A stretch of 64,000 nucleotides of DNA from Methanobacteriota archaeon (GTDB taxonomy: Archaea > Thermoplasmatota > Poseidoniia > Poseidoniales > Thalassarchaeaceae): the NCBI GenBank assembly GCA_002708385.1, contig PANM01000013.1:87359-151358 (forward strand). Reading direction: 5' to 3'. The translations under genes were made by a program, and so were the position numbers. The notes below the pieces were generated by a model that was given only the letters and a program-made list of their open reading frames with translations, had not been told where the DNA came from and did no database searches. Of this stretch, positions 845 through 46,665 are shown one piece after another (the first letter of the stretch is position 1; each line of letters begins with the position of its first letter).

Positions 845-2506
845 TCAGACACCACTCGGAGCAATCCAGGTACCAAAAACGTCCCTAAGTACGTCGTTTA
901 CCTCTCCCAATGTGACTTCTTCTTTGTAAGCTTCAATCATTATTTCTAGTAAATTTTCATTATTTTTGGCTGCTCTTCGGATACCTTGTAGGTGTTGTTG
1001 AATAACGAAATTATCGCGATTAATTTTCATCTCAAGTAGTTGATTGATTTGATTTTGTGATTTTGAGGGGTCAATGATATGGCCAAATTTTGCGGACTCA
1101 TCCGATTCACTGAATTTGTTTACTCCGACCACAGAAGTTTCCCCGCTTTCTATAGCCTGTAATTGGTTCCAAGCGGACTCATGAATTTCTCGTTGCTGAT
1201 ATCCTGATATTACACAATTCATTGCACCCCCATTAGATTCTATTGATTCTATTAATTTCTTAGATTCATCATACAACTTAGTTGTTAATTCTTCTACTAA
1301 ATATGAACCAGCTAATGGATCCACTGTAGTAGGTATATTTGTTTCATGGGCTAAAATTTGTTGAGTTCTAAGAGCGAGTAATGCCGATTCCTCGGTAGGT
1401 AAGCCAATTGCTTCATCGTAAGAGTTAGTATGGAGGCTCTGTGTGCCTCCAAGTACAGCAGCTAAAGCTTGGTAAGCTACTCTAACTGAATTATTAATCG
1501 GTTGTTGGGCAGTTAGTGTCACTCCAGCAGTTTGAGTGTGAAATCTCAACATAGTTGATTTCGGATTATTCGGTTGAAATCTTTCAGTGACTAGATCATA
1601 CCATAGTTTTCTAGCTGATCTAAATTTTGCTACTTCCTCGAAAAAATCATTATGACAACCAAAAAAGAATGAAATCCTTGGTGCAACATCATCTATGTCA
1701 ATCCCTACGTTGACCGCTTGTTGAATATACTCCAACCCATTTGACAGTGTAAAGGCAATTTCTTGAGTAGCTGTACATCCTGCCTCCCTCATGTGATAAC
1801 CGCTGACTGATATAGTATTCCAAAGGGGAGTGTTTTCCTTACTCCATGACATTAAATCGGTGGTTAATCTAATAGATTCCAAAGGGGGGAAAATATACAG
1901 CCCTCTGGCTATATATTCCTTCAATATGTCATTTTGAACGGTGCCTCTTAGTTCATTTCTAGGCACACCCTTTTCATCCGCATAAGCTACATAAAGAGCA
2001 AATAATGAAGTTGCAGGTGCATTAATTGTCATAGATGTTGATACAATAGACAAATCTATGCCCTCGAATAAGTCTCTCATATCGTGGATTGAATCTATTG
2101 CGACCCCTACCTTACCCACCTCGCCTATAGCCAAATCTGAATCAGAATCTAATCCTAGTTGGGTAGGTAAATCGAAAGCAACGGAGAGGCCTGATTGGCC
2201 CTTGGATAAAAGTTCATGAAATCTCAAATTGGTAGATTTTGCATTTGAAAAACCAGCATATTGTCTCATAGTCCACAGTTTATCTAAGTACATGTTTTTG
2301 TGGATTCCCCGTGTATAAGGTGGATCACCAGATGAACCTAATGATTGATGAGAAAATTCTATCCCATTTAGTGTATTAATTGTTGGGTGACTGGAGCGAT
2401 CAGTAGTCAAACCTTCCCCACCTACGTCACTATCCATAGTTACCCGAAGTGGATAAGATGCATGAACTCTATGTAAAAAAGGTCTATCTCCTGATTGTAT
2501 AATCAT
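845..2506 (-). CDS. Methylmalonyl-CoA mutase, large catalytic (substrate-binding) subunit without B12-binding domain
   Basis: About 550 aa. Mutase motifs are present: RQYAGFS, GLSVAFDLPTQ, SMTINAPA and TQTAGVTLTAQQPINN. The first track codon is TTG; an ATG lies at 2504-2506. Confidence 0.85.
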   Translation of the reverse strand: MIIQSGDRPFLHRVHASYPLRVTMDSDVGGEGLTTDRSSHPTINTLNGIEFSHQSLGSSGDPPYTRGIHKNMYLDKLWTMRQYAGFSNAKSTNLRFHELLSKGQSGLSVAFDLPTQLGLDSDSDLAIGEVGKVGVAIDSIHDMRDLFEGIDLSIVSTSMTINAPATSLFALYVAYADEKGVPRNELRGTVQNDILKEYIARGLYIFPPLESIRLTTDLMSWSKENTPLWNTISVSGYHMREAGCTATQEIAFTLSNGLEYIQQAVNVGIDIDDVAPRISFFFGCHNDFFEEVAKFRSARKLWYDLVTERFQPNNPKSTMLRFHTQTAGVTLTAQQPINNSVRVAYQALAAVLGGTQSLHTNSYDEAIGLPTEESALLALRTQQILAHETNIPTTVDPLAGSYLVEELTTKLYDESKKLIESIESNGGAMNCVISGYQQREIHESAWNQLQAIESGETSVVGVNKFSESDESAKFGHIIDPSKSQNQINQLLEMKINRDNFVIQQHLQGIRRAAKNNENLLEIMIEAYKEEVTLGEVNDVLRDVFGTWIAPSGV

Positions 2507-3224
2507 CAACGACTGAATTTAGTTTTTCTGCTTGTGCATCATCTAAAATACCTTCATTTTGTTTGTCTAAAATAAATTGTTTCGCGTCTTGGGTGGTTTG
2601 CCTTTCTCCCTTAGCCCAAATTGAACCTAATAGTGAAGAATGGTATTCCTCTGCAACATCAATGTCCTTCAATAGTCCTCGGACTTCGTATTTGTATTCC
2701 ATATGTCTTGACCGGTCTAATCTTTGTTCTTTGGTAGCAGGTTGAAATTTAGGTTTAGGTCTTCTGAAGGATTTGACCGGTTTTGTTGGCGTGGACTTGA
2801 CTGGTTTTTGTTGTTTCTCGGCAATTGCGTTAGCATTGGCTCTAGCCTTAGTCGCTTCAATAATTTCCATTGCTTTTGAGCTAGTGGTGGGTAATTCCTC
2901 TTCAGATTCTTGTTCTTCTACGGTTGACAGGCCTCTTGTTCGCCTTTTCGTAACACCAAGTACTTGTTCTTCCAGTATTGACTCATCTTCGTTTACCGTA
3001 ATTTCTTTTTCATGCGTCTTTTCCGGTTGTGATTTTGTTTTTTGTTTGACAGTGGTTTTGGCCTTAGGAGGTATTTGTGTTGGAGGTAAACTAGGTTTAG
3101 CCGGTGTAGCTTTAGTGGGTGTTGAAACGACGCTTTTCTTGGAAGGTGGTTTCGGTGATTTGCCCCCTGATGATTTATCGAAAATATTCCGAGGCTCACT
3201 TCGTGGTTTCCTACGTCGCTGCAC
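2484..3224 (-). CDS. Hypothetical protein with Lys/Pro/Thr-rich low-complexity N-terminal half and a conserved-looking C-terminal domain
   Basis: Intact 246-aa ORF. It has a KPxKP-type basic tail like two other proteins in the window. It overlaps the mutase 5' end by about 23 nt. Confidence 0.4.
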   Translation of the reverse strand: MQRRRKPRSEPRNIFDKSSGGKSPKPPSKKSVVSTPTKATPAKPSLPPTQIPPKAKTTVKQKTKSQPEKTHEKEITVNEDESILEEQVLGVTKRRTRGLSTVEEQESEEELPTTSSKAMEIIEATKARANANAIAEKQQKPVKSTPTKPVKSFRRPKPKFQPATKEQRLDRSRHMEYKYEVRGLLKDIDVAEEYHSSLLGSIWAKGERQTTQDAKQFILDKQNEGILDDAQAEKLNSVVDDYTIRR

Positions 3225-4349: not shown

Positions 4350-5615
4350 ATGAGCCTGTTGCTGCTGAATACTGGGCCTATAGCTACCATCGATAATGGT
4401 GATCCAACAATTCCGCTGACCGGCAGCGATATGAGTGATACCGAGACACTCACTCTGCCATCTGGAAATGGGGTATTTATTGAAAATGGTATCATAAAAA
4501 AAATCGAACAATCGGATTGTTTATCTAATGAATTTGGTTCTGAAGATACGAAAGATTTGACTGTAATTGATTGTAATTATCAAGCCATTATACCCGGATT
4601 TGTGGACTCTCATACACATCTATTGTGGGATGGTGATCGCTCTAATGAAATGCAATTACGCCAACAAGGACTTACCTATTCTGATATAGCTAATCTCGGT
4701 GGTGGAATTAACAAAACTGTAGAATTTACCAGAAATGCTCCTCTAGAGAAATTACTTGCTTTGGGTAGAAACCGAATAGAACGAGCAGTAAACCTAGGCA
4801 TTACAACTATCGAATGTAAAAGTGGCTATGGATTGGATATTGAATCTGAAATCAAATTATTAAAAGCCTCGAACATATTATCCGGAACATCGCTTGTAGA
4901 TATTCATTCAACATGGCTAGGGGCTCATGATATTCCCAAAGGTGTGAAGGCTGGAGATTATGTAGAGTCATTAATATCTGAACAATTACCCGCTGTTGTT
5001 GAACAAGGATATGCAAAATATTGCGATGTTTTCTGTGAACCCGGTTGGTTCACTCTAGAACAGACAGAGGACATAGTGAAGGCCGCCAAGACATATGGGT
5101 TTACACCAAGATTACATGTAGACGAATTTGTAGATGGGAATGGATTGCAATTAGCAGCAGAACTAGGTGCCGTCAGTGGCGATCATGTAGGGCACTCTTC
5201 GGATGAAGCCAGAGAATACGCGACCAAATCTGGAACCATGCAAACCTTCCTCCCTGGAACTCCCTATGTTCTTGGCCACCATCTAAATTCCCCATTACGT
5301 CGTTGTGTAGATAATAATTGGCAATTTTCGCTGGCTACGGACTTCAATCCTAATTGTCAAACATTGTCAATTCCTTTTGTAGGTAGTCTGGCTACACATC
5401 GTCTAAACCTAACCCCATTAGAAGCACTCGTGGCTGTAACTCGTAATCCCGCCACTACACTACTGGATTCAACTAATTCACTAGTCCCCGGAAGCATAAG
5501 GGAAGGCGGACCTGCAGATTTACTAATATTGAATTCTCAACACATAGATGCTTGGTGTCAAATGCCAGGGGATAATCCAATCCATCATACAATCAAGTCC
5601 GGCCTCATATTGTAA
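4350..5615 (+). CDS. hutI: Imidazolonepropionase (amidohydrolase superfamily)
   Basis: The metal-ligand motif DSHTHL plus KSGYGLD and downstream His/Asp ligands match HutI. The rest of the histidine-utilisation set lies nearby. Confidence 0.8.
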   Translation: MSLLLLNTGPIATIDNGDPTIPLTGSDMSDTETLTLPSGNGVFIENGIIKKIEQSDCLSNEFGSEDTKDLTVIDCNYQAIIPGFVDSHTHLLWDGDRSNEMQLRQQGLTYSDIANLGGGINKTVEFTRNAPLEKLLALGRNRIERAVNLGITTIECKSGYGLDIESEIKLLKASNILSGTSLVDIHSTWLGAHDIPKGVKAGDYVESLISEQLPAVVEQGYAKYCDVFCEPGWFTLEQTEDIVKAAKTYGFTPRLHVDEFVDGNGLQLAAELGAVSGDHVGHSSDEAREYATKSGTMQTFLPGTPYVLGHHLNSPLRRCVDNNWQFSLATDFNPNCQTLSIPFVGSLATHRLNLTPLEALVAVTRNPATTLLDSTNSLVPGSIREGGPADLLILNSQHIDAWCQMPGDNPIHHTIKSGLIL

Positions 5616-6092
5616 AATAGTTAAGGCTAATACAGAACACCATTTCACAACACGCGATTCCTTATAATTAATTATCAATTTACAACAGTACGTTGGGAGC
5701 CAAACATAGAATGTGACTAAGATTATGTAATTATCATTCCAAACTCGAGCATCTGTGAACTGATAACAGTAGTTATCGGCCTTAGATTAGTAGTCCCACC
5801 TTAACATAGGCTCTCAGTACGACGATTTTTGATTATCAGAGGAAAATTACCAATTCCTCCCTCATAGACGCATTAAAATTTCTCCAATACATCGGAGATA
5901 CATGACAGAAGGAATTTCCGGCTTCTGTATGAAATGTAAACACAGGCGAATCATATCTAATCCGACTAATGTTAAGATGAGTAATGGCCGAATTAGAGTC
6001 ACAGGACATTGTAGCTGGAAAAACTGTGATGGAAAAATTTCCAAGATCATTTCATAGATGGAAGACTAAAGGCAGAATCATTCATTTGGGAG

Positions 6093-6098
6093 AATATA
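6093..6098 (+). promoter_or_regulatory. Putative TATA-like element (AATATA) about 17-22 nt upstream of tRNA-Val
   Basis: An A/T hexamer lies at the expected distance for an archaeal tRNA promoter. A 5-bp leader hairpin GCCCA/TGGGC follows at 6099-6118. Confidence 0.2.
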
Positions 6099-6114
6099 GC
6101 CCACTAAGATATCT

Positions 6115-6190
6115 GGGCTCGTGGTCTAGGGGTTATGACGTCGCCTTGACATGGCGAAGATCGCAGGTTCAATTCCTGCCGAGCCCACCA
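6115..6190 (+). tRNA. tRNA-Val (anticodon GAC) with genomically encoded 3' CCA
   Basis: I folded a full cloverleaf by hand. The acceptor GGGCUCG pairs with CGAGCCC, the D-stem is GUCU/UGAC, and the anticodon stem is UCGCC/GGCGA. The loop is UUGACAU, the T-stem GCAGG/CCUGC, the T-loop UUCAAUU and the discriminator A73. CCA is at 6188-6190. Confidence 0.9.
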
Positions 6191-6208
6191 GATAATTTAT
6201 TTCACCTA

Positions 6209-6934
6209 TTAGTGGTTTTCAAATGTATATGAAAATCTGATTCTACCCTTACCTTTGTTTTTCTTACCAACATATTCAATGAAGGGGATTTTTGCAGTAT
6301 TGTCAACATGGGTACCTGCACATGGGCACAGATCAATGTCTTCTACTTCTACAACTCTTAGTTCCTTAACGGAGGACGGAATTCTGTCCATGAATTTAGT
6401 GTGTCTCATTTGTTCATGTCCCATAATTTGCTCACGTGACCATTGATGGATGTTGACTGGTATGTTTTTACTCAAGATACCATTTACAGTTGACACTAAT
6501 ACATCGGGTTCGAATTGCGATTTATCTTCGAATAGTAAATCTACCCTGGATTTATCAAATGTTAATTGATTCCCGACAGTTTCAGCACCCCAAATATCTT
6601 CGGCTATCGCTGACACAATGTGTTGTGCTGTGTGCATACTTGTGTGTCTATTCCTACGTTCAACATCTATGTGACAGGTAATTAAATCACCCATTTCGAA
6701 AAGGTCTGGTTCCTCAACAGGATGGGCGATCATATCCCCTGAAACTACCTCATGCATTTTCGATTTACTTTCTTTAGATTTGATTATGCCCGTATCCCCA
6801 GGTTGACCTCCCCCCCGAGGGTAGCAATAAGTAGATTTTAGGAATATATTGTCTCCCTGAATATCTACGATTTCCGAAATAAAAGGTTTTGGATTTAGAC
6901 CAGGATGTTGTGTCATATGCATTTTTTCTTGCAT
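6209..6934 (-). CDS. alaX: AlaX-type trans-editing protein (alanyl-tRNA synthetase editing-domain homolog, AlaX-M size)
   Basis: The zinc-binding editing motifs HTAQH and CPCAGTH (CxxxH) are present, at about 240 aa. The track ORF starts with TTG at 6964; the in-frame ATG at 6932-6934 gives MQEKMHM. Confidence 0.7.
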   Translation of the reverse strand: MQEKMHMTQHPGLNPKPFISEIVDIQGDNIFLKSTYCYPRGGGQPGDTGIIKSKESKSKMHEVVSGDMIAHPVEEPDLFEMGDLITCHIDVERRNRHTSMHTAQHIVSAIAEDIWGAETVGNQLTFDKSRVDLLFEDKSQFEPDVLVSTVNGILSKNIPVNIHQWSREQIMGHEQMRHTKFMDRIPSSVKELRVVEVEDIDLCPCAGTHVDNTAKIPFIEYVGKKNKGKGRIRFSYTFENH

Positions 6935-6938
6935 GGAA

Positions 6939-8462
6939 TCACCCAAAAATTTCGTGCGGATCAACCAACAACATCGAATTTGCTAGTGATTGACATTCCT
7001 GACTCATTACTCTATCTCCTTCGAATGGTTCAACATATTTACGAACCCATTTTTTCAAATTAACTACGCCATTTCCGGGTTGAATCGATAATCTTTCTAG
7101 TGATTCTATTGAACAAACCAATTCGTTAGCAATAACTTGAGATAGTAATGTTGTTGATTTTAGAGACCGAAATGTTCCTGTGGCCCCCATTGATACATGA
7201 TCTTCCTTACCCATGCTAACAGGAACATTAGACGTAGTTACTGGGTTCGACAAAAGATGTAATTCTGCTATGCAGGCCGCAGCGACATATTGTACAATCA
7301 TATATCCGCTTTCCAATCCTTCATCAATAGCTAAGAAAGCCGATTGGCCACCCCAATTAGGGTCAAGGACTTGGTTAATTCTACGCTCCGCAATTGATGC
7401 TAGTTCGTGGCACGCAACCGCTATAGAATCACTAGCGAGGGCTAAGTTTTGTCCATGGAAATTACCACCACTGATTATTTCTGAACCATTTTTTCCATAG
7501 AATACTAATGGGTTATCTGTAGCGCTATTGATTTCTATTTTTAGTAACCTTCGAGTCTCAATAGCTATGTCAATTACAGGACCATGGACCTGTGGCACAC
7601 ATCTGAAACAATATGCGTCTTGTACTCTATCACAATCTTCGTGGGATAGTTTAACTTGTGAGTTATGCAAGAATCCAGCGATTCTTGATGCAGATATCAG
7701 TTGTCCTCTCTGAGGCCTATTGTTGTGAATTCGTGGGTCAAAAGGGGAATGAGAACCCCTAATGGCTTCTAATGAACATGCTGCGGAAGCATCTGCGAAC
7801 AGTAATAATCGTTCTAAATTTAACAACGTTAGAGAAAGGTATGTGCACATTTGGCTTGTTCCATTAATCAGTGATAGCCCTTCTTTTGCTTGTAACTTTA
7901 CAGGCTTCAGATTATTTTCGATAAGAATCTCTGAGGTAGGATATTCCTTCCAGCCCGATTTACCCCTAACCAAACAACTTCCTTCCCCAATTAGTCCTAA
8001 GGCCATATGTGACAACGGGGCTAGGTCCCCAGAAGCACCTAATGAGCCAATTCTAGGTATAATTGGGGCGATACCTAGGTTAATCATTTCAATTAGTAAT
8101 TTCACAACCTCTGGTCGAATTCCTGATACGCCTTTTGCTAGTGAATTTGCACGATATACCATCATTAAAAGTACATGTTCAGGGTCCATGAGCTCACCAA
8201 CTCCACAAGCATGACTACGTATCAGGTTAGTCTGTAACTTGGCTAATTCAGTCTCATCAATTTTGACTGAAGACATCGCCCCAAATCCAGTATTTATTCC
8301 ATAAACTACTTGATCAGAATTTACAATCTCCTCCACTACCTGTCTAGATTGCGACATTCTATCGATAGCTTGGTCGCACAGAACTAAAGTGGATTGACCA
8401 ATTGATGCAGAATATGCAGACTCGATAGTGAGTGTTTGACCATCGATTAGAACAGTGGCCAT
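6939..8462 (-). CDS. hutH: Histidine ammonia-lyase
   Basis: The MIO-forming Ala-Ser-Gly triad sits in GASGDLAPLSHMA, at about 507 aa with ammonia-lyase family conservation throughout. Confidence 0.9.
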   Translation of the reverse strand: MATVLIDGQTLTIESAYSASIGQSTLVLCDQAIDRMSQSRQVVEEIVNSDQVVYGINTGFGAMSSVKIDETELAKLQTNLIRSHACGVGELMDPEHVLLMMVYRANSLAKGVSGIRPEVVKLLIEMINLGIAPIIPRIGSLGASGDLAPLSHMALGLIGEGSCLVRGKSGWKEYPTSEILIENNLKPVKLQAKEGLSLINGTSQMCTYLSLTLLNLERLLLFADASAACSLEAIRGSHSPFDPRIHNNRPQRGQLISASRIAGFLHNSQVKLSHEDCDRVQDAYCFRCVPQVHGPVIDIAIETRRLLKIEINSATDNPLVFYGKNGSEIISGGNFHGQNLALASDSIAVACHELASIAERRINQVLDPNWGGQSAFLAIDEGLESGYMIVQYVAAACIAELHLLSNPVTTSNVPVSMGKEDHVSMGATGTFRSLKSTTLLSQVIANELVCSIESLERLSIQPGNGVVNLKKWVRKYVEPFEGDRVMSQECQSLANSMLLVDPHEIFG

Positions 8463-8483
8463 GATGTTGCCGAGTCAGGACCA

Positions 8484-10499
8484 TCAAATAGACTCATCGT
8501 GCATATCAAATAGTCTATCCAATAGATTCCGATCAACTAAATTTGGAATAGTTATGCCAAGTTTATCGTCTAAATCCATGGCCCTTTCAACTGTCCAAAT
8601 GGCCCCCTCATTTCTAGCCCATGAACGCCTAGCTAATCCATTCAAAACATCCCAACTTATCATTGAATTAATTCTACCTTGAGAATCATCTGAACCATCT
8701 ATCAATAATCCAAATCCGCCGTTAATTACTTCCCCCCAGCCTACACCTCCCCCATTGTGTAAACTCGTCCATGTTGCTCCTCTAAACGAATCACCCACAA
8801 AATTCTGAATAGCCATATCGGCAGTGAACATGGAGCCATCCCGAATATTTGCAGTTTCACGATAGGGACTATCGGTACCCCCCACATCGTGGTGATCTCG
8901 GCCAAGAACTATCGGGGCTGAAATTAATCCCTCGCTGATTGCTCTGTTAAAAGCGCTAGCAATCATTGACCGCCCTTTTTCATCAGCATACAAAATTCGG
9001 GCTTTACTACCCACAACCAAATTGTGTTTTTCCGCCTCTAAAATCCAACGAATATTATCCTGATATTGTGTCTCAATTTCATTAGGACAATTACTGGCTA
9101 ATTCTCTAAGTACTTCTACCGCTATTTCATCTGTAATACTGAGATCTTCATCAGAACCTGAAGTGCATACCCATCTGAAAGGACCGAATCCATAATCAAA
9201 GCACATAGGGCCCATGATGTCCTCAACATATGATGGATACTTGAAGGAACCATCTTCTTCAACAATATCTGCATTAGCCCTGCTTGATTCTAGAAGGAAG
9301 GCATTACCATAATCCCAAAAAACTGTACCTCTACTACATAATCGATTAATGCTTTTTACATGTCTTCTAAGAGTACTATGAACCGCTTCTTTGAACTTTT
9401 CAGGATAATTAATCAACAGAGATTTAGATTCAGTTAATGTATAATCTACAGGCATATAACCACCCAGCCACGGATTATGTAAACTGGTTTGATCACTCGC
9501 TAGGTGTGGTGTAAATTCTATTTCTACCATATATTCCAATAAGTCAACTATATTGCCTACATATCCTAATGATACTGCTTCTTTCGATGTGACAGCGGTT
9601 TTAGCCCTCAATATTAAATCATCCAAGTTGTCATAAATCTCGGTCAACCAACCTTGGGAATACCTTTTCTCGGCTACAATAGGGTCAATTTCCGCAATGA
9701 TACATACGGCACCAGCAATAACGGCAGCTTTAGCCTGCGCTCCACTCATTCCACCTAGGCCAGAAGTTACGTAGACAATCCCGCCTAAATCTGAATCGTT
9801 TGGGACATTGAGGTATTTTCTAGCCGCATTCAAGATTGTAATTGTAGTTCCGTGGACAATCCCCTGTGGGCCAATGTACATGTATGAGCCAGCTGTCATT
9901 TGTCCATATTGCGACACCCCTAATGCGTTCATTTTCTCATAATCTTCTTGTGAAGAATAATTAGGAATAACCATTCCATTTGTTACAACCACCATAGGTG
10001 CATCTTTGTTTGATGGAAATAGCCCTAATGGATGGCCAGAATACATAACAAGAGTTTGATTTTCTGCCATTGTTGACAGATATTTCATAGTTAGAAGGTA
10101 TTGAGCCCAATTTTGGAAAACAGATCCATTCGTACCGTATGTGACTAGTTCATGGGGAAATTGTGCGACTTTTGGGTCTAGATTATTTTGTATCATCAAC
10201 ATAATTGAAGCCGCGGAAAGTGATTTTGCATTGTAATGGTGAATTGGTCTTGCATGGATCTCATATTCAGGCCTAAATCGATGCATGTATATGTGACCAT
10301 AATCATTCAACTCATTGAGAAATTCTTTCGATAATTTATCATGCCAATTATCTGGAAAATATCGTAGAGCATTTTCTATTGCAAGTTTTTTCTCAGAGTT
10401 TGACAATACTTGCGGCCTCTTTGGTGCGTGAGGAACTGAATCATCTATTGTGGCTGCAGGAGGTAAATCTCGTGGAATCCCAATTGTGTAATCTATCAT
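8484..10499 (-). CDS. hutU: Urocanate hydratase, long form (671 aa) with about 90-aa N-terminal extension
   Basis: Urocanase core motifs NNLDPKVAQFP, YGQMTAGSYMYIGPQGIVHGT, GLGGMSGAQ, GRDHHDVGGTDSPYRETA and SLHNGGGVGWG are present. N-terminal residues 20-90 (VPHAP...ALRYFP...YGHIYMHRF) go beyond the bacterial enzyme, which is about 557 aa. Confidence 0.9.
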   Translation of the reverse strand: MIDYTIGIPRDLPPAATIDDSVPHAPKRPQVLSNSEKKLAIENALRYFPDNWHDKLSKEFLNELNDYGHIYMHRFRPEYEIHARPIHHYNAKSLSAASIMLMIQNNLDPKVAQFPHELVTYGTNGSVFQNWAQYLLTMKYLSTMAENQTLVMYSGHPLGLFPSNKDAPMVVVTNGMVIPNYSSQEDYEKMNALGVSQYGQMTAGSYMYIGPQGIVHGTTITILNAARKYLNVPNDSDLGGIVYVTSGLGGMSGAQAKAAVIAGAVCIIAEIDPIVAEKRYSQGWLTEIYDNLDDLILRAKTAVTSKEAVSLGYVGNIVDLLEYMVEIEFTPHLASDQTSLHNPWLGGYMPVDYTLTESKSLLINYPEKFKEAVHSTLRRHVKSINRLCSRGTVFWDYGNAFLLESSRANADIVEEDGSFKYPSYVEDIMGPMCFDYGFGPFRWVCTSGSDEDLSITDEIAVEVLRELASNCPNEIETQYQDNIRWILEAEKHNLVVGSKARILYADEKGRSMIASAFNRAISEGLISAPIVLGRDHHDVGGTDSPYRETANIRDGSMFTADMAIQNFVGDSFRGATWTSLHNGGGVGWGEVINGGFGLLIDGSDDSQGRINSMISWDVLNGLARRSWARNEGAIWTVERAMDLDDKLGITIPNLVDRNLLDRLFDMHDESI

Positions 10500-10502
10500 T
10501 CA

Positions 10503-11126
10503 CTACCACCCTAGACGGTTTGTAAATATACTATTGATTTCAATTATTGTATTGTTGCATTGATTCAATTTGTGAACGCATTTCTCATCTAAATCTGACT
10601 TTGCATCCCCTTCCAGATATTGTGTATTGATTTTCACGTTGTAAGCTGCTATTTTAGCAGACGCCAATGCCAATTCAGAAGCCGAAGCTAGGTCGGTTAG
10701 TGCATTTACATTACAATTTGGAACTAGTGTAGAAATAGTTTTCAAAAGAATACAAGCATAATCTAAGATCTCTAAGGGGGCTGATGCCGCACCAATTGTA
10801 GCCTCCGTTATCGCTTTTTTCTTGGTCATTGCATCAGTATCCTTGGGTAATCTATATGCATTCATAACTTCATCAAAGGCCAATGCATCATTTTGCGCTA
10901 ACCGGATTGAAAATCCTAAATTAGCATCTTCGGATTCTATAATTTTATTTGCAATGTCGTGGCCATCTATCCATTTTTCACTTTTAACAGTTAATCTGGC
11001 AACCATTATCGTGAGTGCATGAGCATGGGCTAATGTGAGGCCAGCCACAGAACCCCCACCAGGAGTGGGCGCCGAAGAAGAAATTGAATCTAAGACATCC
11101 CTGTAACCATCATTCAATGTGATCAC
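10503..11126 (-). CDS. Formiminotetrahydrofolate cyclodeaminase (stand-alone FTCD C-domain)
   Basis: The cyclodeaminase signature APTPGGGSVAGLTLAHAHAL is present. It overlaps the upstream transferase gene by 17 nt. Confidence 0.75.
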   Translation of the reverse strand: MITLNDGYRDVLDSISSSAPTPGGGSVAGLTLAHAHALTIMVARLTVKSEKWIDGHDIANKIIESEDANLGFSIRLAQNDALAFDEVMNAYRLPKDTDAMTKKKAITEATIGAASAPLEILDYACILLKTISTLVPNCNVNALTDLASASELALASAKIAAYNVKINTQYLEGDAKSDLDEKCVHKLNQCNNTIIEINSIFTNRLGW

Positions 11127-12156
11127 CTCTAATTGCCCACTCGATTATATTCGAATTAGGGTCAAAATCTTCTAGTTTGTTTAACATCAATCCGTTAATG
11201 GCATAATCTACTAATTCCTGTTCACTAGCGTCCGGATTATTTCCATAATGCTGCCCGGCGGCAAGAATTGCTTCCAGTGGGACTAATCCAACCAATTCAG
11301 AAGAAATTGCCTGTAACCCTAATTTGGATGCTTCAATTCTTATAGCATCCGTAACCTGATGTAAGCCTGTCGAGTTAAAATCTAGTAAATTCATGGATAC
11401 TTGGGCAGTTTTGTCGTCATACATCCATCCTGCTGCCTGCAGATTAGAAAATATCCCGGGTTGCCTCAATGGTTTACCATTTGCATCTTTAATGGTACTT
11501 CCTTCTTCATCTTTAATAAGGTGACCACTAGTTCTAATTTTTCCAGCGATTTGATTAGCTTGTGATTTGTTGTCGGTATTCAAATTCACATTGTATGCTA
11601 TCAATAAATTTCGTCCACCAGTAGCTGTAACTCCCATTTTAGGAGTGAATTGACTTGGTCCATAATCAGGTTTCCATTCTGGTTGGGATAGTTTATCTTG
11701 AAATCCTTCATATTCCCCTCTTCGTATATCCGGTAATCTAACTCTTTGAGTTAATTTGGCAGATTCGGCATAGAGATAAATGGGTAGGTTATGTTTGGTA
11801 GAAATCGCCTTACCATAACGATGAGACAAGTCTACACAATCATCCATAGATACGTTACTTATGGGTATGAATGGAACCACATCAACTGCTCCCATTCTAG
11901 CGTGTTCCCCAGAATGCATTGTCATATCGATTAATTCTAATGCTATTGATGTACATTGAACCACAGTATCAAGTACAGATTCGGGATCACCTACCATGGT
12001 TACTACAGTTCGATTGAAATCCACTCCCATATCAATATCTAATAGCGTGACTCCTTCATTATCGAGTATTGGTTGAATTATTCTGTCGATTATTGTTTTA
12101 TCCCTACCCTCACTAAAGTTCGGTACACATTCAACCAAACGGGACGTCATCAGCAT
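11110..12156 (-). CDS. ftcD: Glutamate formimidoyltransferase (FTCD N-domain homolog)
   Basis: The hallmark N-terminus VECVPNFSEGRD is present, at about 348 aa. Confidence 0.85.
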   Translation of the reverse strand: MLMTSRLVECVPNFSEGRDKTIIDRIIQPILDNEGVTLLDIDMGVDFNRTVVTMVGDPESVLDTVVQCTSIALELIDMTMHSGEHARMGAVDVVPFIPISNVSMDDCVDLSHRYGKAISTKHNLPIYLYAESAKLTQRVRLPDIRRGEYEGFQDKLSQPEWKPDYGPSQFTPKMGVTATGGRNLLIAYNVNLNTDNKSQANQIAGKIRTSGHLIKDEEGSTIKDANGKPLRQPGIFSNLQAAGWMYDDKTAQVSMNLLDFNSTGLHQVTDAIRIEASKLGLQAISSELVGLVPLEAILAAGQHYGNNPDASEQELVDYAINGLMLNKLEDFDPNSNIIEWAIRGDHIE

Positions 12157-12188: not shown

Positions 12189-13478
12189 TCATCCATACAG
12201 TGCTTCAGGATTGCTCTTTCCTAGGTCTAATCTATTTTCGTTGATAATCTCTAATGCCAAATTTATGTCTTTTCGTGAAATTGAATTTCGATTATTGCTA
12301 ATCGCGTTCAATCCGGCTTCCATAATTAATGCCTTCAATTCCGCCCCACTAAATCCTTTGGTTTGTTTGGAAACTTGTTGGAGATTTACTTCCTTATCAG
12401 TAGGAATTCCCTTGGAAATTATTTGCAGAATATCTAGCCTACCCTCTTTGTCAGGTAATCCGATTTCAATAATTCTATCTAAACGACCGGGTCGCAACAG
12501 TGCTTTATCCAATAACTCCGGCCGATTGGTAGCAGCGATAATTTTGATATTGGAAGTAGCTTCGAAACCATCCATTTCAGCTAATAATTGCATCAAAGTC
12601 CTTTGAACCTCCCTATCACCGGATGTCGAGGAGTCTAATCTCTTTGACCCGATAGCGTCTATTTCATCTATGAAAATAATGGTTGGGGACTTTTGTTTCG
12701 CAAGGTCAAATAATTCACGGACTAATCTGCCTCCTTCACCGATATACTTCTGAGCGAGTTCTGAGCCTACTAAGCCGATGAAAGTAGCAGAGGTGGAATT
12801 TGCAAGTGCCCTTGCCATCATGGTCTTTCCTGTTCCAGGGGGCCCAGTCAATAAGACACCTTTAGGTGGAGTTAAACCCATTTTTCTGAAGGTTTCAGGC
12901 TTATTCAATGGCAATTCAATCGATTGTTTTAATTGGTTAATTTGTTCTTGCATTCCACCAATTTCTTCATACAAAGTATCTGGTTTTTCGATAATTTCTC
13001 TAGACGCCACTAAGGGATCCCAACCATCATTAAGAATGTCGATAACGGTTAGGGTATCCTGATTCATAGAAATTCTAGTTCCCGGCTTTAGTAAATCTCT
13101 ATCAATATTAGAATTGACCGAAACTTGGAATACTGTACCGTTAGAACTCCTGACAATAGCATGATTTTCTGTTAAATCTTGAATGTAACCTACTATGAAT
13201 GGTGGTTCTCGCATTATTCGAATTTCATCATCAAGTCTAGAAATTCGCTTTTTTAATTGATTGATCTCATTCTCTAAGAATAACTTTTCAGTAAGTAAAT
13301 TTTGGGAAGTTTGGGTTAATTCATTGACTTGTTTACGCAATTCTGCAACAGGGGTTTTATTTAGAGAATTCACTCTATCTTCTGAGCCTGACCCTGCTGA
13401 CATGAATATGGACATGTTCCCCATGTTTTGACATTTACCTCGCGAAGATATGATGACTGAGTACCGTTTCGCATACAT
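12189..13478 (-). CDS. pan: Proteasome-activating nucleotidase (PAN, AAA+ ATPase)
   Basis: An N-terminal coiled coil precedes Walker A GPPGTGKT, Walker B IIFIDEIDA and the second region of homology. The C-terminus LYG fits the HbYX proteasome-docking motif. The true start may be an internal Met about 20 codons in. Confidence 0.85.
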   Translation of the reverse strand: MYAKRYSVIISSRGKCQNMGNMSIFMSAGSGSEDRVNSLNKTPVAELRKQVNELTQTSQNLLTEKLFLENEINQLKKRISRLDDEIRIMREPPFIVGYIQDLTENHAIVRSSNGTVFQVSVNSNIDRDLLKPGTRISMNQDTLTVIDILNDGWDPLVASREIIEKPDTLYEEIGGMQEQINQLKQSIELPLNKPETFRKMGLTPPKGVLLTGPPGTGKTMMARALANSTSATFIGLVGSELAQKYIGEGGRLVRELFDLAKQKSPTIIFIDEIDAIGSKRLDSSTSGDREVQRTLMQLLAEMDGFEATSNIKIIAATNRPELLDKALLRPGRLDRIIEIGLPDKEGRLDILQIISKGIPTDKEVNLQQVSKQTKGFSGAELKALIMEAGLNAISNNRNSISRKDINLALEIINENRLDLGKSNPEALYG

Positions 13479-13967
13479 GTGTCTGATTGCGAACTATGTG
13501 GGTCAAACCAGGTTTCTACATACCGCACAAAAGCTTCTGGGGCAGTAATCTATGCTTGTATGAGATGTATTGAAAAATTGGGTCTAGACAAACCAATTTT
13601 GACCAACAATCGCCCTATTACCCCTAATCATAACCGATTAAAAGTCACACCTAGAAATGATATAATGAAGAAATCAGAAAAGGAATTAGCACATGATTTT
13701 CACATTAGAATCCGGAAGGCTAGGGAATCAAAAGGCTGGGAACAAAGAGAATTTGCAAGGAGGATGAACGAACGATTGAATATTGTTCAAAGGACGGAAA
13801 ATGGCAATCGCCCTCCAGACAATTTAATAAAAAAAATAGAGAAGGTGCTGGATATCGAATTAATGGTTGATTCTGAGCCATCTAATACCAGACAAACATC
13901 AACTGGCACTTCCCGAAACATGACCATTGGGGACGCTTACGACGATCTGTTTTCACGGAGAGAATGA
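13479..13967 (+). CDS. mbf1: Archaeal multiprotein-bridging factor 1 (aMBF1): N-terminal zinc ribbon plus Cro/C1-type HTH
   Basis: CELCGS...CMRC zinc ribbon, then an HTH segment (LAHDFHIRIRKARESKGWEQREFARRMNE), about 160 aa. Confidence 0.7.
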   Translation: MSDCELCGSNQVSTYRTKASGAVIYACMRCIEKLGLDKPILTNNRPITPNHNRLKVTPRNDIMKKSEKELAHDFHIRIRKARESKGWEQREFARRMNERLNIVQRTENGNRPPDNLIKKIEKVLDIELMVDSEPSNTRQTSTGTSRNMTIGDAYDDLFSRRE

Positions 13968-21280: not shown

Positions 21281-21372
21281 GAATATGGGCAGTTGTAATT
21301 CCTTCTTGATACTTACCTTTGTTCTGATTGAATAATACAAGCGGTTTATTACTAGTTTGCCACGGGCCAAAC

Positions 21373-22230
21373 ATGGACACAGATTCACAGCATATTCGCA
21401 TAGGCCATTCGCCAGACCCAGATGACGCATTCATGTTCTATGCTCTCACCACAGGTGTATTGGATACTCCCGGAAGGGAATATGAGCATGTATTGTTAGA
21501 TATCCAGACATTGAACGAAAAAGCATTGAATAAAGAATACGAAATTTCTGCTGTGAGCATTCATTCATTCCCAAAAATTATCGAAAATTACGCCTTGATG
21601 AATTGTGGAGCGTCTATGGGTGAAGGATACGGTCCTATGTTGATTGCAAATCAGGAATTTACTGTAGATGAAGCCAGATCCAAAACCATAGCAATTCCTG
21701 GTCTTGACACATCTGCTTACCTAGCACTAAGATTGGCATGGGGAGATGTCAACGTAGAGGTGGTTCCATTCGATGAAATTCTCCCCTCCGTTGTTGCCGG
21801 AAGGTTTGATGTGGGACTAATTATTCATGAAGGACAACTTACTTGGAAGGATGAGGGTGTTTATCTCATTCAGGATATGGGTGTATTGTGGAATGAAAAG
21901 ACAGGATTGCCATTACCACTGGGGGGAAATGTTGTACGACGTGATCTTGGAGAGGATTTATGCAAAATGTTATCTGATGATGTTAAACGATCAATCAAAC
22001 ATTCTATAGAAAACCCAGATTTAGCCTTAGAATTCGCAAAAAAATGGGGTCGAGGAATAGACGATGATACAAATCGAGAATTTGTACAAATGTATGTCAA
22101 CGATCGGACTTTGGACTATGGTGAATCGGGGAGAAAAGCAGTTAGATTATTTCTTTCAGAAGGACAAAAAATTGGCATGGTAGACCCTAATCTAGACACA
22201 GATGGTATCGAATTCATCGGGGCTGAATAA
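21373..22230 (+). CDS. mqnD: MqnA/MqnD-family enzyme, probably 1,4-dihydroxy-6-naphthoate synthase (MqnD)
   Basis: The N-terminus IRIGHSPDPDDAFMFYAL resembles the MqnD GxSPCPND motif. I trimmed the start to the ATG at 21373. Confidence 0.6.
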   Translation: MDTDSQHIRIGHSPDPDDAFMFYALTTGVLDTPGREYEHVLLDIQTLNEKALNKEYEISAVSIHSFPKIIENYALMNCGASMGEGYGPMLIANQEFTVDEARSKTIAIPGLDTSAYLALRLAWGDVNVEVVPFDEILPSVVAGRFDVGLIIHEGQLTWKDEGVYLIQDMGVLWNEKTGLPLPLGGNVVRRDLGEDLCKMLSDDVKRSIKHSIENPDLALEFAKKWGRGIDDDTNREFVQMYVNDRTLDYGESGRKAVRLFLSEGQKIGMVDPNLDTDGIEFIGAE

Positions 22231-22710
22231 ATGACGGAAAACATACCAGAAAGATCCGAGTTTGACTCCGTTGATCCAGCACCTCCAAGTGATGGAAATA
22301 ACGTCTCGAATCTACGAAATACTCTTTGTGATGAAAATGAAAAAATGTTTCAAAGAATGCGGGCCTTATTTGCCCTTAGGAATATTGGTGGGAAAGAATC
22401 TGTTGATGCTCTGGCTGCCGCATACAGGTCTAAATCGGCATTGTTGAAACATGAGATAGCATATGTGATGGGCCAAATGCAGGATACTAATGCCGTACCT
22501 CACCTGATTGATAGATTGGAAGATAAAGATGAGGATATTATGGTGAGACATGAAGCTGCGGAAGCATTGGGTGCAATTGGCGATAGAACTGCTTTGTCTG
22601 TCCTAGAAAAATTCGTAAATGATGATGAAGTAGTCATCGCAGAATCATGTGAAGTAGCTCTAGATTTGTTGGAATGGGTAGCTAGTAAGAGATTGGATTA
22701 TTCGGATTAA
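22231..22710 (+). CDS. Half-size deoxyhypusine hydroxylase-like HEAT-repeat protein (two His-Glu motifs)
   Basis: 159 aa with ALFALRNIGG, SALLKHEIAYVMGQMQD and IMVRHEAAEALGAIGD matching the diiron-ligand HE repeats of one lobe of eukaryotic DOHH. Its ATG directly follows the mqnD stop. Confidence 0.55.
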   Translation: MTENIPERSEFDSVDPAPPSDGNNVSNLRNTLCDENEKMFQRMRALFALRNIGGKESVDALAAAYRSKSALLKHEIAYVMGQMQDTNAVPHLIDRLEDKDEDIMVRHEAAEALGAIGDRTALSVLEKFVNDDEVVIAESCEVALDLLEWVASKRLDYSD

Positions 22711-23507
22711 ATCTCTAAGTTAGCCCAAGTTGGTTCTTCAGATATCTGACAAACCTCCTTTAGGAATTTTGAAAGACCTTTATGAGATTCTTCATCTAAT
22801 GTATTTCTTACCTCGTTATCGAAGTAATGCTGCATTCGTATTTTATCAATACCTGTAGATGAAGATGATTGCTCAATTACCAATGATTTTTTTGTTGGAA
22901 TGGTATTAAATTCTTCATAATTCTGTAATAAATCAGCATGTATAGCCGATATTTGGCTGATCGGTGCATCTTTTCGGCAAGCAAATACACCAAAGACCAT
23001 AGGTAATTTGGTAACTTTGGTCCATTCCCCCCCTAAATCTAAACAAACTAATTCAGGATAATTTTCAGCTGCATTTAATGCCCTGTCTCCGATTAGTAAC
23101 GCCCCATCGCATGTGGCTAACATAGAATCTAAGTCAGGGCCGGTTTCAATACATTTTGGATCTAGTCCTTTGTGTTCAAGTAGCCATCGTAAAAGGACCT
23201 TAGAAGTGGAAGAATCTGAAGGTAATGCTATATCTCGCATATCGGTTAAATCTCTACTTCCAAAAAGAATAACCGAACCAACAGCACCCATAGCAACTAT
23301 TCCAAGATTAGGTAGTAACATCAATTCATCTTGGTGTTTAGCATAATCAGCTGCCGGTATGGGTGCCGTTAGACAATCTCTCCTTAGCACGTGACCTGTT
23401 AACCACGCAGGAGGCGCTGATAGGATTGTCCATTTAGAATTTAAACCATGGAAAAGGGGGTCGCAATTAGTAAAAGCAACTCTTCCAATTACATTCGTCC
23501 AAGCCAT
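22707..23507 (-). CDS. mqnA: MqnA/MqnD-family enzyme, probably chorismate dehydratase (MqnA)
   Basis: Periplasmic-binding-protein-like fold family. The N-terminus IGRVAFTNCDPLFHGL resembles the MqnA GRISYLNxxPLxYGL pattern. Confidence 0.55.
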   Translation of the reverse strand: MAWTNVIGRVAFTNCDPLFHGLNSKWTILSAPPAWLTGHVLRRDCLTAPIPAADYAKHQDELMLLPNLGIVAMGAVGSVILFGSRDLTDMRDIALPSDSSTSKVLLRWLLEHKGLDPKCIETGPDLDSMLATCDGALLIGDRALNAAENYPELVCLDLGGEWTKVTKLPMVFGVFACRKDAPISQISAIHADLLQNYEEFNTIPTKKSLVIEQSSSSTGIDKIRMQHYFDNEVRNTLDEESHKGLSKFLKEVCQISEEPTWANLEI

Positions 23508-23518
23508 AATCTGACACC

Positions 23519-24745
23519 TTATACTAATAGCGGAAGAGAAGTGGATTTAGTAACTTGAACATTTTCTATGTTAAATTTGGAATAAACTGTGTTTCTTCTT
23601 ACTGCTATTTGCCCTGTTTCATGTATTAATCGGATTAAATCCTGATTACTCGAATCTAAAGCAGTTGTACTACCTGCTGAATGCATAATTTCTTCGTGAC
23701 CTACTGTTCCATCTATATCGTCGGCGCCTGAGAGAAGAGCTAATTGTGCAACATCGTCTCCAATATTCATTCTGTATGCTTTAATGTGCGGTATGTTATC
23801 TAGCATCAATCTAGAGATTGCAATCATCCTTAATATTTCATTGGAGCTAGCTAGTTGCGCTTCTGGCAAACGACTAAAATCTGGTAAAAATGGGTAGGGG
23901 ACAAAACATTGGAAGCCATTTGTTTCATCTTGTAATTGTCGAAGTAAATCTAAATGTACGATTCTATCTTGAATGGTTTCAATCGTACCAAATAACATAG
24001 TGCAATTAGTCGGTATGCCTAACGTATGTGCCTCCTTATGAATATTCAAATATTCATTACTGGATTCCTTGCCTCTACAAATTCTATCTCTAATCTTGTC
24101 GACAAGAATTTCCGCCCCACCACCAGGAATGGAATCCAATCCGGAATTCTTGAGGCGTTGTAATGTTTCTTTAACAGTTAAGTTAGACCTTTTTGATAGG
24201 TGTTTGATTTCAACTGCAGTAAGGGATTTAATATGTATATGCGGAAATTTCGTTTTGGCACTTCTGTAGAGGTCTTCATAATGAGTAATATCCCATACCG
24301 GATGTAGACCACCAACAGAGTGTACTTCATCAATACTAGAAGAAAAACGTTCGATTCTGTGAAGATATTCGTCTATGCTCAATTCATACGCTTCATCATG
24401 GCGTGGGCCTTTTCTAAATGCACAAAATCGACATGCTAAAACACAAATGTTTGTGGTATTTACGTGTAGATTTTGATTAAAATAAATTTGATTATCAAAT
24501 CTAGATTGTTTGACCATGTTAGCCAGTGTAAATAGCGAATTAATGTTGGTAACAGAATACAGTGCCTTCCCCAAATTTGGTTTAATCCGGCCTTCTTCAA
24601 TTAACGAATTTAAGGCTCTCAATAGTGTTGGATTATTAGAAATAGAGGTAGGAATTGGCATAATGCTAAGTCGATTTCTCCAATTCAAATCCCCTCCGAG
24701 GGGAGCAGGATATGACTCTTGTGATGTATCCACAACACCCGCCAA
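23519..24745 (-). CDS. Radical-SAM enzyme of the MqnC/MqnE (CofH-like) family, futalosine pathway
   Basis: The CxxxCxxC cluster is CVLACRFCAF, and family conservation is CofH/MqnC/MqnE-like. An alternative ATG lies at 24659-24661. I cannot tell MqnC from MqnE by eye. Confidence 0.65.
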   Translation of the reverse strand: MAGVVDTSQESYPAPLGGDLNWRNRLSIMPIPTSISNNPTLLRALNSLIEEGRIKPNLGKALYSVTNINSLFTLANMVKQSRFDNQIYFNQNLHVNTTNICVLACRFCAFRKGPRHDEAYELSIDEYLHRIERFSSSIDEVHSVGGLHPVWDITHYEDLYRSAKTKFPHIHIKSLTAVEIKHLSKRSNLTVKETLQRLKNSGLDSIPGGGAEILVDKIRDRICRGKESSNEYLNIHKEAHTLGIPTNCTMLFGTIETIQDRIVHLDLLRQLQDETNGFQCFVPYPFLPDFSRLPEAQLASSNEILRMIAISRLMLDNIPHIKAYRMNIGDDVAQLALLSGADDIDGTVGHEEIMHSAGSTTALDSSNQDLIRLIHETGQIAVRRNTVYSKFNIENVQVTKSTSLPLLV

Positions 24746-33774: not shown

Positions 33775-35463
33775 ATGACCGCTACTTCGACTCCACTGGA
33801 TGGCTTGGATACTTCTCAAGTAGATATGATGGAAGAATTGTGCCTATGCCTAGATGAAAATGACAATGTCATAGATTCCTCGAGCAAATTAACCACTCAC
33901 TATGGAGAAGGCATTAGACATAGAGCATTCAGTGTACTAATTTTTGACTCCAATGATCGTTTGTTGGTGCAACAGCGGTCTACAGACAAAATTACATTCC
34001 CTGGGGTTTGGGCTAATTCCTGTTGTAGCCACCCATTAAACATGACAGGAGAAAATGGAGATCCAGTAGAGGGAGTAATTAAAGCTGCAAAACGGAAGTT
34101 AAATCAAGAATTAGGTATACCAGAAAATGTTACGAATAATTGGAAGTTCAACCACATTGGTAGATTTGAATATAAATGTCGTTGGGACCAAGATTGGGTA
34201 GAACACGAAATTGATCATGTATTAATTGTAAGAGCGGACTGTGAAACCAATCATAATAGGAATGAAATTCAGGCAATCGATTGGTTAGACAAAAAAGCTC
34301 TAAGTGAAATGATGGAAGGTAAAGGTAGATGGAAGAGTCAACTAATAGCACCCTGGTTTCAAGCGATATACGTCAATTTCCTAAATTCGAATGATTTTAC
34401 TTTAGAAGAGATAATTGATAATCCCATCAAAGAAATCATTAGATGTGAGGAATTATCTGTGAATCATCCGTCTAATTCCGCTAGTAATGTATTATCCGCA
34501 CTGGAGAATCACAGAGATATTGTCGAGTCAATAATCGAAGATAGTCTATTAAAAATACAACAAGAACGATTGCGTGGTGCAATGTCACACCTCTTTACCG
34601 GCGGTGGAAAACGACTGAGGGCTATACTTCCTAGGCTAGTAGGCAATGCAGTAGGGAATGGGCATCAAGGCCATTATACACTTGGAGCTTGTATCGAAAT
34701 CATACACAACTTCACTTTGGTTCATGATGATATTATGGATCAAGACCCAATAAGGAGAGGACTTGATGCAGTTCACGTAGCATATGACGATGCAACCGCC
34801 ATAAACGCCGGTGACGCGATGTTGGCATTGGGCTTTGAAATGCTGGCTGACAGCGAACACATACAAGATTCTCAACTTCGACAAGTAGTCAGTGCAATTG
34901 GAGAAATGGTTAGGCATGTCGCTGAAGGGCAACAAGAAGATTTCGAATTTGAAGAAAGAGAAAATGTTTCTGAGGAAGAATACATAGCGATGATTGCCGG
35001 AAAAACTAGTGCTATGTTCAAGACCTGTGCCGAGACTGGAACAATTTTAGCCGGAAAAGATAAGTCAACGATAGAAAACATGGCTAAATGGGGCCTTAAC
35101 CTGGGATTATGTTTCCAAATTATGGATGATTATATTGATATGACCAGTGACACAGAAACTCTCGGTAAACCTGCTGGAAGTGACATAATTCAAGGTAAAA
35201 GAACACTGATTGCTATACATGCTCTTGAGAGTGGTGCTAATCTACCAAATTTCAGGAAATTGTTTGGAACAGACTCCGATAATTTGACTGATTTATCTAC
35301 AGCCGTTGAAGAACTTCGAGATAATGGTTCAATTCAATATGCTTTAGATAGAGCATTGGAACATCATAAAATCGCCCATGACTGTTTAGACAAACTAGAT
35401 CAGTCGGAATCAGTCAATCTACTAAGAGATATGACGGATTTCCAATTGGTTAGAATCAATTGA
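33775..35463 (+). CDS. Fusion protein: type-1 isopentenyl-diphosphate isomerase (Nudix fold) plus short-chain (geranyl)geranyl diphosphate synthase
   Basis: The N-terminal about 200 aa carry IDI1 signatures HRAFSVLIF, ITFPGVWANSCCSHPL and WVEHEIDHVLIV. The C-terminal about 330 aa carry the trans-prenyltransferase FARM LVHDDIMDQD and SARM FQIMDDYID. It is one uninterrupted ORF. Confidence 0.8.
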   Translation: MTATSTPLDGLDTSQVDMMEELCLCLDENDNVIDSSSKLTTHYGEGIRHRAFSVLIFDSNDRLLVQQRSTDKITFPGVWANSCCSHPLNMTGENGDPVEGVIKAAKRKLNQELGIPENVTNNWKFNHIGRFEYKCRWDQDWVEHEIDHVLIVRADCETNHNRNEIQAIDWLDKKALSEMMEGKGRWKSQLIAPWFQAIYVNFLNSNDFTLEEIIDNPIKEIIRCEELSVNHPSNSASNVLSALENHRDIVESIIEDSLLKIQQERLRGAMSHLFTGGGKRLRAILPRLVGNAVGNGHQGHYTLGACIEIIHNFTLVHDDIMDQDPIRRGLDAVHVAYDDATAINAGDAMLALGFEMLADSEHIQDSQLRQVVSAIGEMVRHVAEGQQEDFEFEERENVSEEEYIAMIAGKTSAMFKTCAETGTILAGKDKSTIENMAKWGLNLGLCFQIMDDYIDMTSDTETLGKPAGSDIIQGKRTLIAIHALESGANLPNFRKLFGTDSDNLTDLSTAVEELRDNGSIQYALDRALEHHKIAHDCLDKLDQSESVNLLRDMTDFQLVRIN

Positions 35464-37671: not shown

Positions 37672-37773
37672 TTTCTCAACCTCTAGTTGGGCCGGCGACC
37701 TGACATCGGTTCATAAATCCGATTGTATCACTACGTGATACAAAACGAAAGTCCCCCGTGTTGGAAATTGCCA

Positions 37774-46629: not shown

Positions 46630-46665
46630 ATATGCTCACACCTACGGTGTGTCTAAAGATGAAAA

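Follow-up and report, generated by a model that had tools for sequence, protein, structure and literature searches.

Can a marine archaeon break down histidine, and what would it do with the formimino group of the intermediate formiminoglutamate? The question is raised by a cluster of hut and ftcD genes in a 64,000-nucleotide stretch of contig PANM01000013.1 (assembly GCA_002708385.1, positions 87,359 to 151,358), which is called the window below and from whose first letter all positions are counted. The cluster is very probably a functional set of histidine utilization (Hut) genes in a Marine Group II (MGII) archaeon of the family Thalassarchaeaceae, using the formiminotransferase branch, in which tetrahydrofolate (THF) would receive the formimino group. 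An earlier note on this DNA had placed six genes here, with hutI converging on a minus-strand block, and all six open reading frames (ORFs) were confirmed (Table 1). Gene identities were assigned by NCBIfam equivalog models at their curated cut-offs together with a Pfam domain search. E-values of the hut and ftcD family matches ranged from 1e-40 to 1e-167, so these matches are not due to chance. The families named in the note were borne out: four proteins, HutI, HutH, HutU and FtcD, exceed the cut-offs of their NCBIfam equivalog models, and a fifth one belongs to FTCD_C (Pfam, 139 bits, cut-off 24.5).

HutH matched the hutH model TIGR01225 with 550.7 bits (cut-off 539.15), while the NCBIfam models for tyrosine or phenylalanine lyases or mutases all stayed far under their cut-offs. 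When HutH was aligned by HMMER to the histidine ammonia-lyase (HAL) of Pseudomonas putida (1GKM), every residue that we take to be catalytic in that enzyme was found to be conserved (Tyr53, His83, the Ala-Ser-Gly triad that forms the MIO group, Asn195, Tyr280, Arg283, Phe329 and Glu414). Retention of Glu414 and of the Ser-His motif specific to HAL favours histidine over tyrosine and phenylalanine as the substrate. Among solved histidases, HutH scored 346 bits with the Trypanosoma cruzi enzyme, 347 bits with 7TQR and 327 bits with that of P. putida. HutI matched the equivalog model TIGR01224 with 324.9 bits (cut-off 298.15), and its best solved relative is the imidazolonepropionase of Bacillus subtilis (2BB0, 220 bits). 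Inspection of its translation by eye revealed the motifs HxH (VDSHTH), LHVDE and ATDFNP, which are presumably the metal and active-site motifs of the B. subtilis enzyme.

HutU matched TIGR01228 with 406.3 bits (cut-off 375) and carries all three Pfam urocanase domains. Its residues 4-665 align with residues 11-677 of the T. cruzi urocanase 6UEK (823 bits, 56% identity), whereas short bacterial urocanases align with it only from about residue 72-98 on and score no more than 344 bits, at 25-35% identity. The N-terminal extension of about 80 residues is shared with the eukaryotic urocanase, and HutU is accordingly of the long, UROC1-like form.

FtcD matched TIGR02024 with 350.7 bits (cut-off 221.25) and has both formiminotransferase subdomains (Pfam FTCD_N, 227 bits; FTCD, 130 bits). 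Over 321 residues it shares 48% identity with the formiminotransferase domain of rat FTCD (1TT9), and it is 49% identical to a homologue from Bacteroidia. The rat alignment showed that the segment GEH(P/A)RMG, which we assume to be the site of the catalytic His82, is conserved. The FTCD_C protein reached 89 bits with the NCBIfam model of the methenyl-THF cyclohydrolase FchA (cut-off 275), and so is not an FchA equivalog. Its solved relatives are the cyclohydrolase 7VG4 (70 bits), the Thermotoga maritima cyclodeaminase 1O5H (49 bits) and the C-terminal domain of rat FTCD (38 bits). The two genes are separate ORFs in different frames, and they are unfused in every MGII relative examined. Because they overlap by 17 nt, and because a gene of this family lies next to ftcD in archaea and bacteria alike, gene context points to the FTCD_C protein as a putative 5-formimino-THF cyclodeaminase.

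Taken together, the five enzymes would cover the conversion that the earlier note had proposed, from histidine to glutamate and 5,10-methenyl-THF with release of two NH3. HutH would deaminate histidine to urocanate and NH3, the long-form HutU would hydrate urocanate to 4-imidazolone-5-propionate, and HutI would open the ring to give N-formimino-L-glutamate. FtcD is then predicted to pass the formimino group to THF, yielding glutamate and 5-formimino-THF, and the separate FTCD_C protein would convert the latter to 5,10-methenyl-THF with loss of the second NH3. In an aerobic heterotroph that scavenges peptides, protein-derived histidine could in this way supply glutamate, as a source of carbon, nitrogen and energy through the tricarboxylic acid cycle, and feed the one-carbon pool.

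The arrangement is conserved well beyond the window. Nine related MGII contigs (L008-L016) were fetched via HutU homologues of 74-94% identity, and the order PAN-ftcD-FTCD_C-hutU-hutH-alaX is present in all nine; hutI and kae1 come next in all seven contigs that reach far enough, and MetRS, a CNNM/CBS protein, an MBF1-like helix-turn-helix (HTH) protein and methylmalonyl-CoA mutase lie further out where the contigs extend. The ratios of nonsynonymous to synonymous substitution rates (dN/dS), calculated against the closest related contig (L012), were 0.095 for HutI, 0.091 for HutH, 0.069 for HutU, 0.122 for FTCD_C and 0.166 for FtcD, and 0.055 and 0.105 for the housekeeping neighbours Kae1 and PAN. 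The five hut/ftc genes are under purifying selection, since their values (0.07-0.17) are comparable to those of Kae1 and PAN. In GC content (0.39-0.41) the hut locus does not differ from its flanks, which, with the order conserved over MGII lineages, indicates that the locus is old and has been inherited vertically within MGII. Recent horizontal acquisition is ruled out by the flank-like GC content and by an arrangement kept across that range of HutU identity. Across MGII lineages (L014-L016), HutU, at about 76% identity, is better conserved as a catabolic enzyme than PAN (56-58%).

The host is a Marine Group II archaeon (Thermoplasmatota, Poseidoniia, Poseidoniales, Thalassarchaeaceae). The elongation factor EF-2 encoded in the window is 93% identical to that of Candidatus Thalassarchaeum sp., 90% to that of Thalassarchaeaceae and 83% to that of Marine Group II euryarchaeote MED-G34, and the closest relatives of HutU are labelled Candidatus Thalassarchaeaceae archaeon, Thermoplasmatota archaeon or Euryarchaeota archaeon. 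The earlier note was right in that the host is an archaeon, but Nitrososphaerota, where it had set the locus, are excluded. The literature portrays MGII archaea, which are uncultured, as (photo)heterotrophs that are aerobic and proteolytic and have many genes for amino-acid degradation (PMC6461757; PMC6336850).

The choice of taxon had gone together with an autotrophic or nitrifying lifestyle, in which histidine would serve a Nitrososphaerota archaeon as an organic ammonia source for nitrification. The sole support for this was that a methylmalonyl-CoA mutase (845-2509) and a glyoxalase-fold epimerase candidate (442-876) lie in the window, where both are indeed present; such enzymes also act in the thaumarchaeal 3-hydroxypropionate/4-hydroxybutyrate cycle. 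However, the idea is hardly tenable: the EF-2 and HutU relatives already refute it, and no amo, nirK or other marker of ammonia oxidation or carbon fixation was found among the about 60 annotated ORFs of the window. Mutase and epimerase are moreover conserved neighbours in other, heterotrophic MGII contigs, and in organisms of this kind most plausibly serve propionyl-CoA catabolism. A thiolase gene and a futalosine-type menaquinone cluster at 21328-24745, with two VitK2_biosynth (MqnA/MqnD-like) genes and a radical-SAM CofH/MqnC-like gene, and with a UbiD-family decarboxylase further along (38896-40227), likewise fit an aerobic, respiring heterotroph. Just as little credence can be given to the idea that the lyase and the hydratase use ergothioneine and thiourocanate, or that an aromatic amino acid takes the place of histidine. 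The MIO-lyase and urocanase families do contain such variants, and the thiourocanate hydratase and tyrosine/phenylalanine lyase models match below threshold. But the hutH and hutU equivalog cut-offs are passed, while HutU scored 289 bits against thiourocanate hydratase (cut-off 930) and 332 bits against S-methyl-thiourocanate hydratase (cut-off 880), and HutH scored 146 bits with the ergothionase 6S7J against 327-347 bits with the histidases; the Ser-His motif and Glu414 also speak for histidine.

Two further readings concern the folate end of the route, and we consider both improbable. In one, FtcD and the FTCD_C protein mainly do folate housekeeping, recycling 5-formyl-THF in place of 5-formyl-THF cycloligase rather than degrading histidine. 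Prokaryotic COG3643 genes have been reported to complement an Escherichia coli ygfA deletion, and such moonlighting of FtcD in 5-formyl-THF recycling is compatible with histidine breakdown (PMC3223725). As the two roles are compatible, the folate role more probably supplements histidine degradation than replaces it, and the close packing of ftcD with hutU and hutH, not far from hutI, which is conserved across MGII lineages, argues against housekeeping as the main one. In the other, the route runs as described and the one-carbon acceptor is a modified folate or another archaeal pterin. Tetrahydromethanopterin or modified folates serve as cofactors in many archaea (Maden, 2000, cited in PMC6461988), and the window, in which all ORFs of at least 120 residues were scanned against Pfam, holds no gene of folate biosynthesis or folate-dependent metabolism. 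However, FtcD has 48-49% identity to the THF-using enzymes of rat and Bacteroidia, and the locus resembles bacterial THF-dependent operons; THF itself is thus the probable acceptor.

Several points nevertheless weigh against a functional histidine route. The enzyme activities are predictions from the sequence, and with no folate gene in the window the supply of the cofactor is assumed. Methenyl-THF cyclohydrolases also belong to the FTCD_C family, among them 7VG4, the solved structure that the protein matches best. Beside the hut genes, no histidine or urocanate transporter and no regulator was detected. Histidine degradation, urocanate, formimino compounds and folate go unmentioned in the main texts of Tully 2019, Rinke 2018 (supplements included), Damashek 2021 and Orellana 2019, which thus lend the route no independent support, and a literature search on MGII with urocanate, tetrahydrofolate, glycine cleavage or serine hydroxymethyltransferase (SHMT) found nothing relevant.

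Table 1. Genes and other features at the hut locus, in window coordinates.
Feature	Position	Strand	Length (aa)	Role or remark
hutI, imidazolonepropionase	4350-5615	+	421	step 3
DUF5679-like ORF	5902-6057	+	51	between hutI and alaX
tRNA-Val(GAC)	6115-6190	+		between hutI and alaX; found by Rfam scan
alaX-like alanyl-tRNA editing protein	6209-6964	-		last gene of minus-strand block; not a pathway enzyme
hutH, histidine ammonia-lyase	6939-8462	-	507	step 1
hutU, urocanate hydratase, long UROC1-like form	8484-10499	-	671	step 2
FTCD_C-family protein, putative 5-formimino-THF cyclodeaminase	10503-11126	-	207	step 5
ftcD, glutamate formiminotransferase	11110-12156	-	348	step 4
PAN proteasome-activating nucleotidase	12189-13478	-		housekeeping neighbour, not a pathway member

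The minus-strand block is compact: besides the overlap of ftcD with the FTCD_C gene, the gaps are 3 nt between the FTCD_C gene and hutU and 21 nt between hutU and hutH, and hutH overlaps alaX by 26 nt if alaX starts at TTG. PAN lies on the same strand directly upstream of ftcD, with a gap of 32 nt as read from the sequence, and is a possible co-transcribed neighbour; it matched the NCBIfam proteasome-activating nucleotidase model with 487 bits, slightly under the cut-off of 500, and its adjacency to ftcD is kept in L008-L016. Two start codons are conceivable for alaX, TTG at 6964 and an ATG some 30 nt further on, about 5 nt past the hutH stop codon. The gene thus overlaps or abuts that stop codon, as it does in every MGII relative examined, and the adjacency of hutH and alaX is kept in L008-L016. 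The alaX-like protein carries Pfam tRNA_SAD and the C-terminal part of tRNA-synt_2c, scored 182.6 bits with NCBIfam AlaXM (cut-off 300), and shows the zinc motifs HxxxH (HTAQH) and CxxxH (CAGTH). Beyond PAN, an HTH_3 protein (13479-13967) with a zinc ribbon and HTH layout resembles MBF1, a general factor of archaea, rather than a Hut regulator. The Rfam scan detected tRNA only, and no riboswitch or leader close to the hut genes. The tight packing with PAN and alaX, the position of kae1 beside hutI and the lack of a dedicated regulator or transporter suggest that the hut genes may be expressed together with these housekeeping neighbours.

On the other strand, hutI is convergent to the block and divergent from kae1 over a 50-nt spacer. 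The hutI-alaX spacer of about 590 nt holds the 51-aa ORF, followed by the tRNA-Val gene, two features absent from the earlier note. The match of this ORF to DUF5679 is weak (23.6 bits, gathering score 27), but a zinc ribbon CxxC...CxxxxC is visible, and a DUF5679 ORF, likewise of 51 aa, occupies the equivalent site in L009 and L010. Compared with its counterpart in L012 (14887-16149), hutI has 82% amino acid identity and a synonymous divergence (dS) of 1.05, whereas Kae1, HutH and HutU have 94% identity and dS of 0.3-0.6. Its dN/dS stays low despite this greater divergence than that of the flanking genes, which could reflect allelic replacement through recombination.

The rest of the window contains archaeal housekeeping genes (EF-2, S7, S12, L37ae, exosome subunits, proteasome alpha, SBDS, primase, an RFC-like ATPase, and MetRS, ProRS-like and other tRNA synthetases) and transketolase halves in addition to the thiolase. 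GC content is 0.44-0.45 at 36000-39000 and 44000-50000 and about 0.40 elsewhere in the window; the higher-GC stretches carry the EF-2/S7/S12 genes and the L37ae, exosome, SBDS and proteasome genes. A plus-strand ORF at 33775-35463 encodes 562 residues with a NUDIX domain (48-184) fused to a polyprenyl synthetase domain (264-513), and its product may be a fusion of isopentenyl-diphosphate isomerase and prenyl-diphosphate synthase. On the minus strand, a 1763-aa Lhr-type helicase is encoded at 54830-60121; its DEAD, Helicase_C, WH_Lhr and DEAD_assoc domains finish by residue 815, and the last approximately 950 residues have no Pfam match. Between kae1 and methylmalonyl-CoA mutase, also on the minus strand (2484-3224), lies the gene of a 246-aa low-complexity protein rich in Lys, Pro, Thr and Ser and with no Pfam hit. 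At the matching position, L008-L013 have ORFs of 245-247 residues, likewise without Pfam hits.

To which lineages the enzymes point was most informative for HutU. In a search of 1.8 billion cluster representatives, the long urocanases formed a compact group, which includes a narwhal UROC1 fragment and a chrysophyte protein (each about 50% identical to HutU) as well as 680-aa proteins of Acidobacteriota. The latter are the nearest relatives outside MGII (62-64% identity). In a neighbour-joining tree of 18 sequences, which is a rough distance tree, the HutU of the window fell on the long-form side, apart from short bacterial HutU, and Acidobacteriota and MGII were grouped with 77% bootstrap. Examination of gene context showed that the long hutU of Acidobacteriota stands alone, with no hut cluster around it, so a donor of the whole operon was not identified. 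Transfer from Acidobacteria to Poseidoniales has been suspected earlier for unrelated genes (PMC11237513). A 654-aa long-form urocanase, 52% identical to HutU, was also detected on L020, a 73-kb contig from ENA (10001-11965); its neighbours carry eukaryote-like domains (Skp1, PTPLA, SNF transporter and Asp/Arg hydroxylase), and the source of the contig may be a picoeukaryote or a giant virus.

HutU is thus the sole component with a specifically eukaryote-like sequence, of a type that occurs in Acidobacteriota too. Since HutH has no eukaryotic bias, and FtcD is about equally close to Bacteroidia and rat, the module looks mosaic or ancient rather than like one block taken from eukaryotes. It is possible, though on balance doubtful, that MGII-b hold an undescribed chimeric Hut module, which would combine the eukaryote-shared, Acidobacteriota-closest urocanase, a hint of inter-domain transfer, with the formiminotransferase branch, and would be hard-wired among housekeeping genes without a regulator. 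If so, abundant surface-ocean archaea would constitutively turn peptide histidine into glutamate, ammonium and folate-bound one-carbon units.

For MGII, the histidine route seems to be an unremarked capacity, although its genes already carry automatic annotations in public metagenome-assembled genomes (MAGs), one such label being 'urocanate hydratase [Candidatus Thalassarchaeaceae archaeon]'. The pathway, the enzyme families and the clustered arrangement are all known already, and the understanding of the pathway itself is unchanged. What the locus adds is an apparently undiscussed amino-acid catabolic route to the picture of these abundant, uncultured and presumably peptide-feeding archaea. 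Because two ammonium would be released per histidine and the folate one-carbon pool would be fed, there is a modest bearing on nitrogen remineralization by MGII and on possible cultivation substrates; a histidine-fed nitrifier finds no support. The long UROC1-like urocanase, which eukaryotes and Acidobacteriota have as well, is of minor evolutionary interest.

How does this gene set compare with known systems? Within the same phylum, Thermoplasmatota, histidine-degradation genes are listed in passing for Lutacidiplasmatales (PMC9287336). The classical hut operons of Pseudomonas, Klebsiella and Bacillus, which use HutG, or HutF and HutG, and the regulators HutC or HutP, share the HutH, HutU and HutI steps with MGII. 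However, neither the MGII locus nor the window encodes a formiminoglutamase, a formiminoglutamate deiminase with formylglutamate deformylase, or a HutC/HutP-type regulator, and the HutU of MGII is of the long type, distant from the short bacterial one. The eukaryotic HAL/UROC1/AMDHD1/FTCD route has chemistry and end products identical to those proposed for MGII, and the likeness extends to the long HutU and to the formiminotransferase domain of rat FTCD. Mammalian FTCD, in contrast, is one fused bifunctional polypeptide (541 aa in rat 1TT9), where MGII have two ORFs; HutH scored almost the same with the T. cruzi enzyme as with 7TQR, and the FTCD_C protein is only weakly similar to the rat C-terminal domain.

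Three routes that start from formiminoglutamate are recognised, and the formiminotransferase branch among them operates in bacteria and animals alike (PMC3223725). Bacterial comparators were obtained by scanning a genome collection with back-translated FtcD peptide patterns, which yielded seven bacterial loci and matched no MGII genome, the patterns being too specific. In L001 (Bacteroidia), L002 and L003 (Acidoferrales) and L006 (Eubacteriales), all of them MAGs, ftcD adjoins hutU and hutI. The prokaryotic contig L019 has the order hutH-hutU-ftcD-hutI-FTCD_C, with a long-form HutU, and hutH and/or FTCD_C are also present in some of these five loci. Since five prokaryotic loci have ftcD next to hut genes, and since the halves of FTCD are separate genes in MGII, the label animal-type and not bacterial, which the earlier note had given to the route, is misleading except for the long UROC1-type HutU; nor is the trait an unusual one, the same route being ordinary in many bacteria. 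Bacterial operons of this branch (the COG3643 route, as in L001 and L019) resemble the MGII locus in that the five enzyme families are clustered and ftcD and FTCD_C are separate. In MGII, however, the gene order differs, hutI lies on the opposite strand, the proteins are only 31-49% identical to those of the L001/L019 type, and the whole set is placed amid PAN, alaX and kae1.

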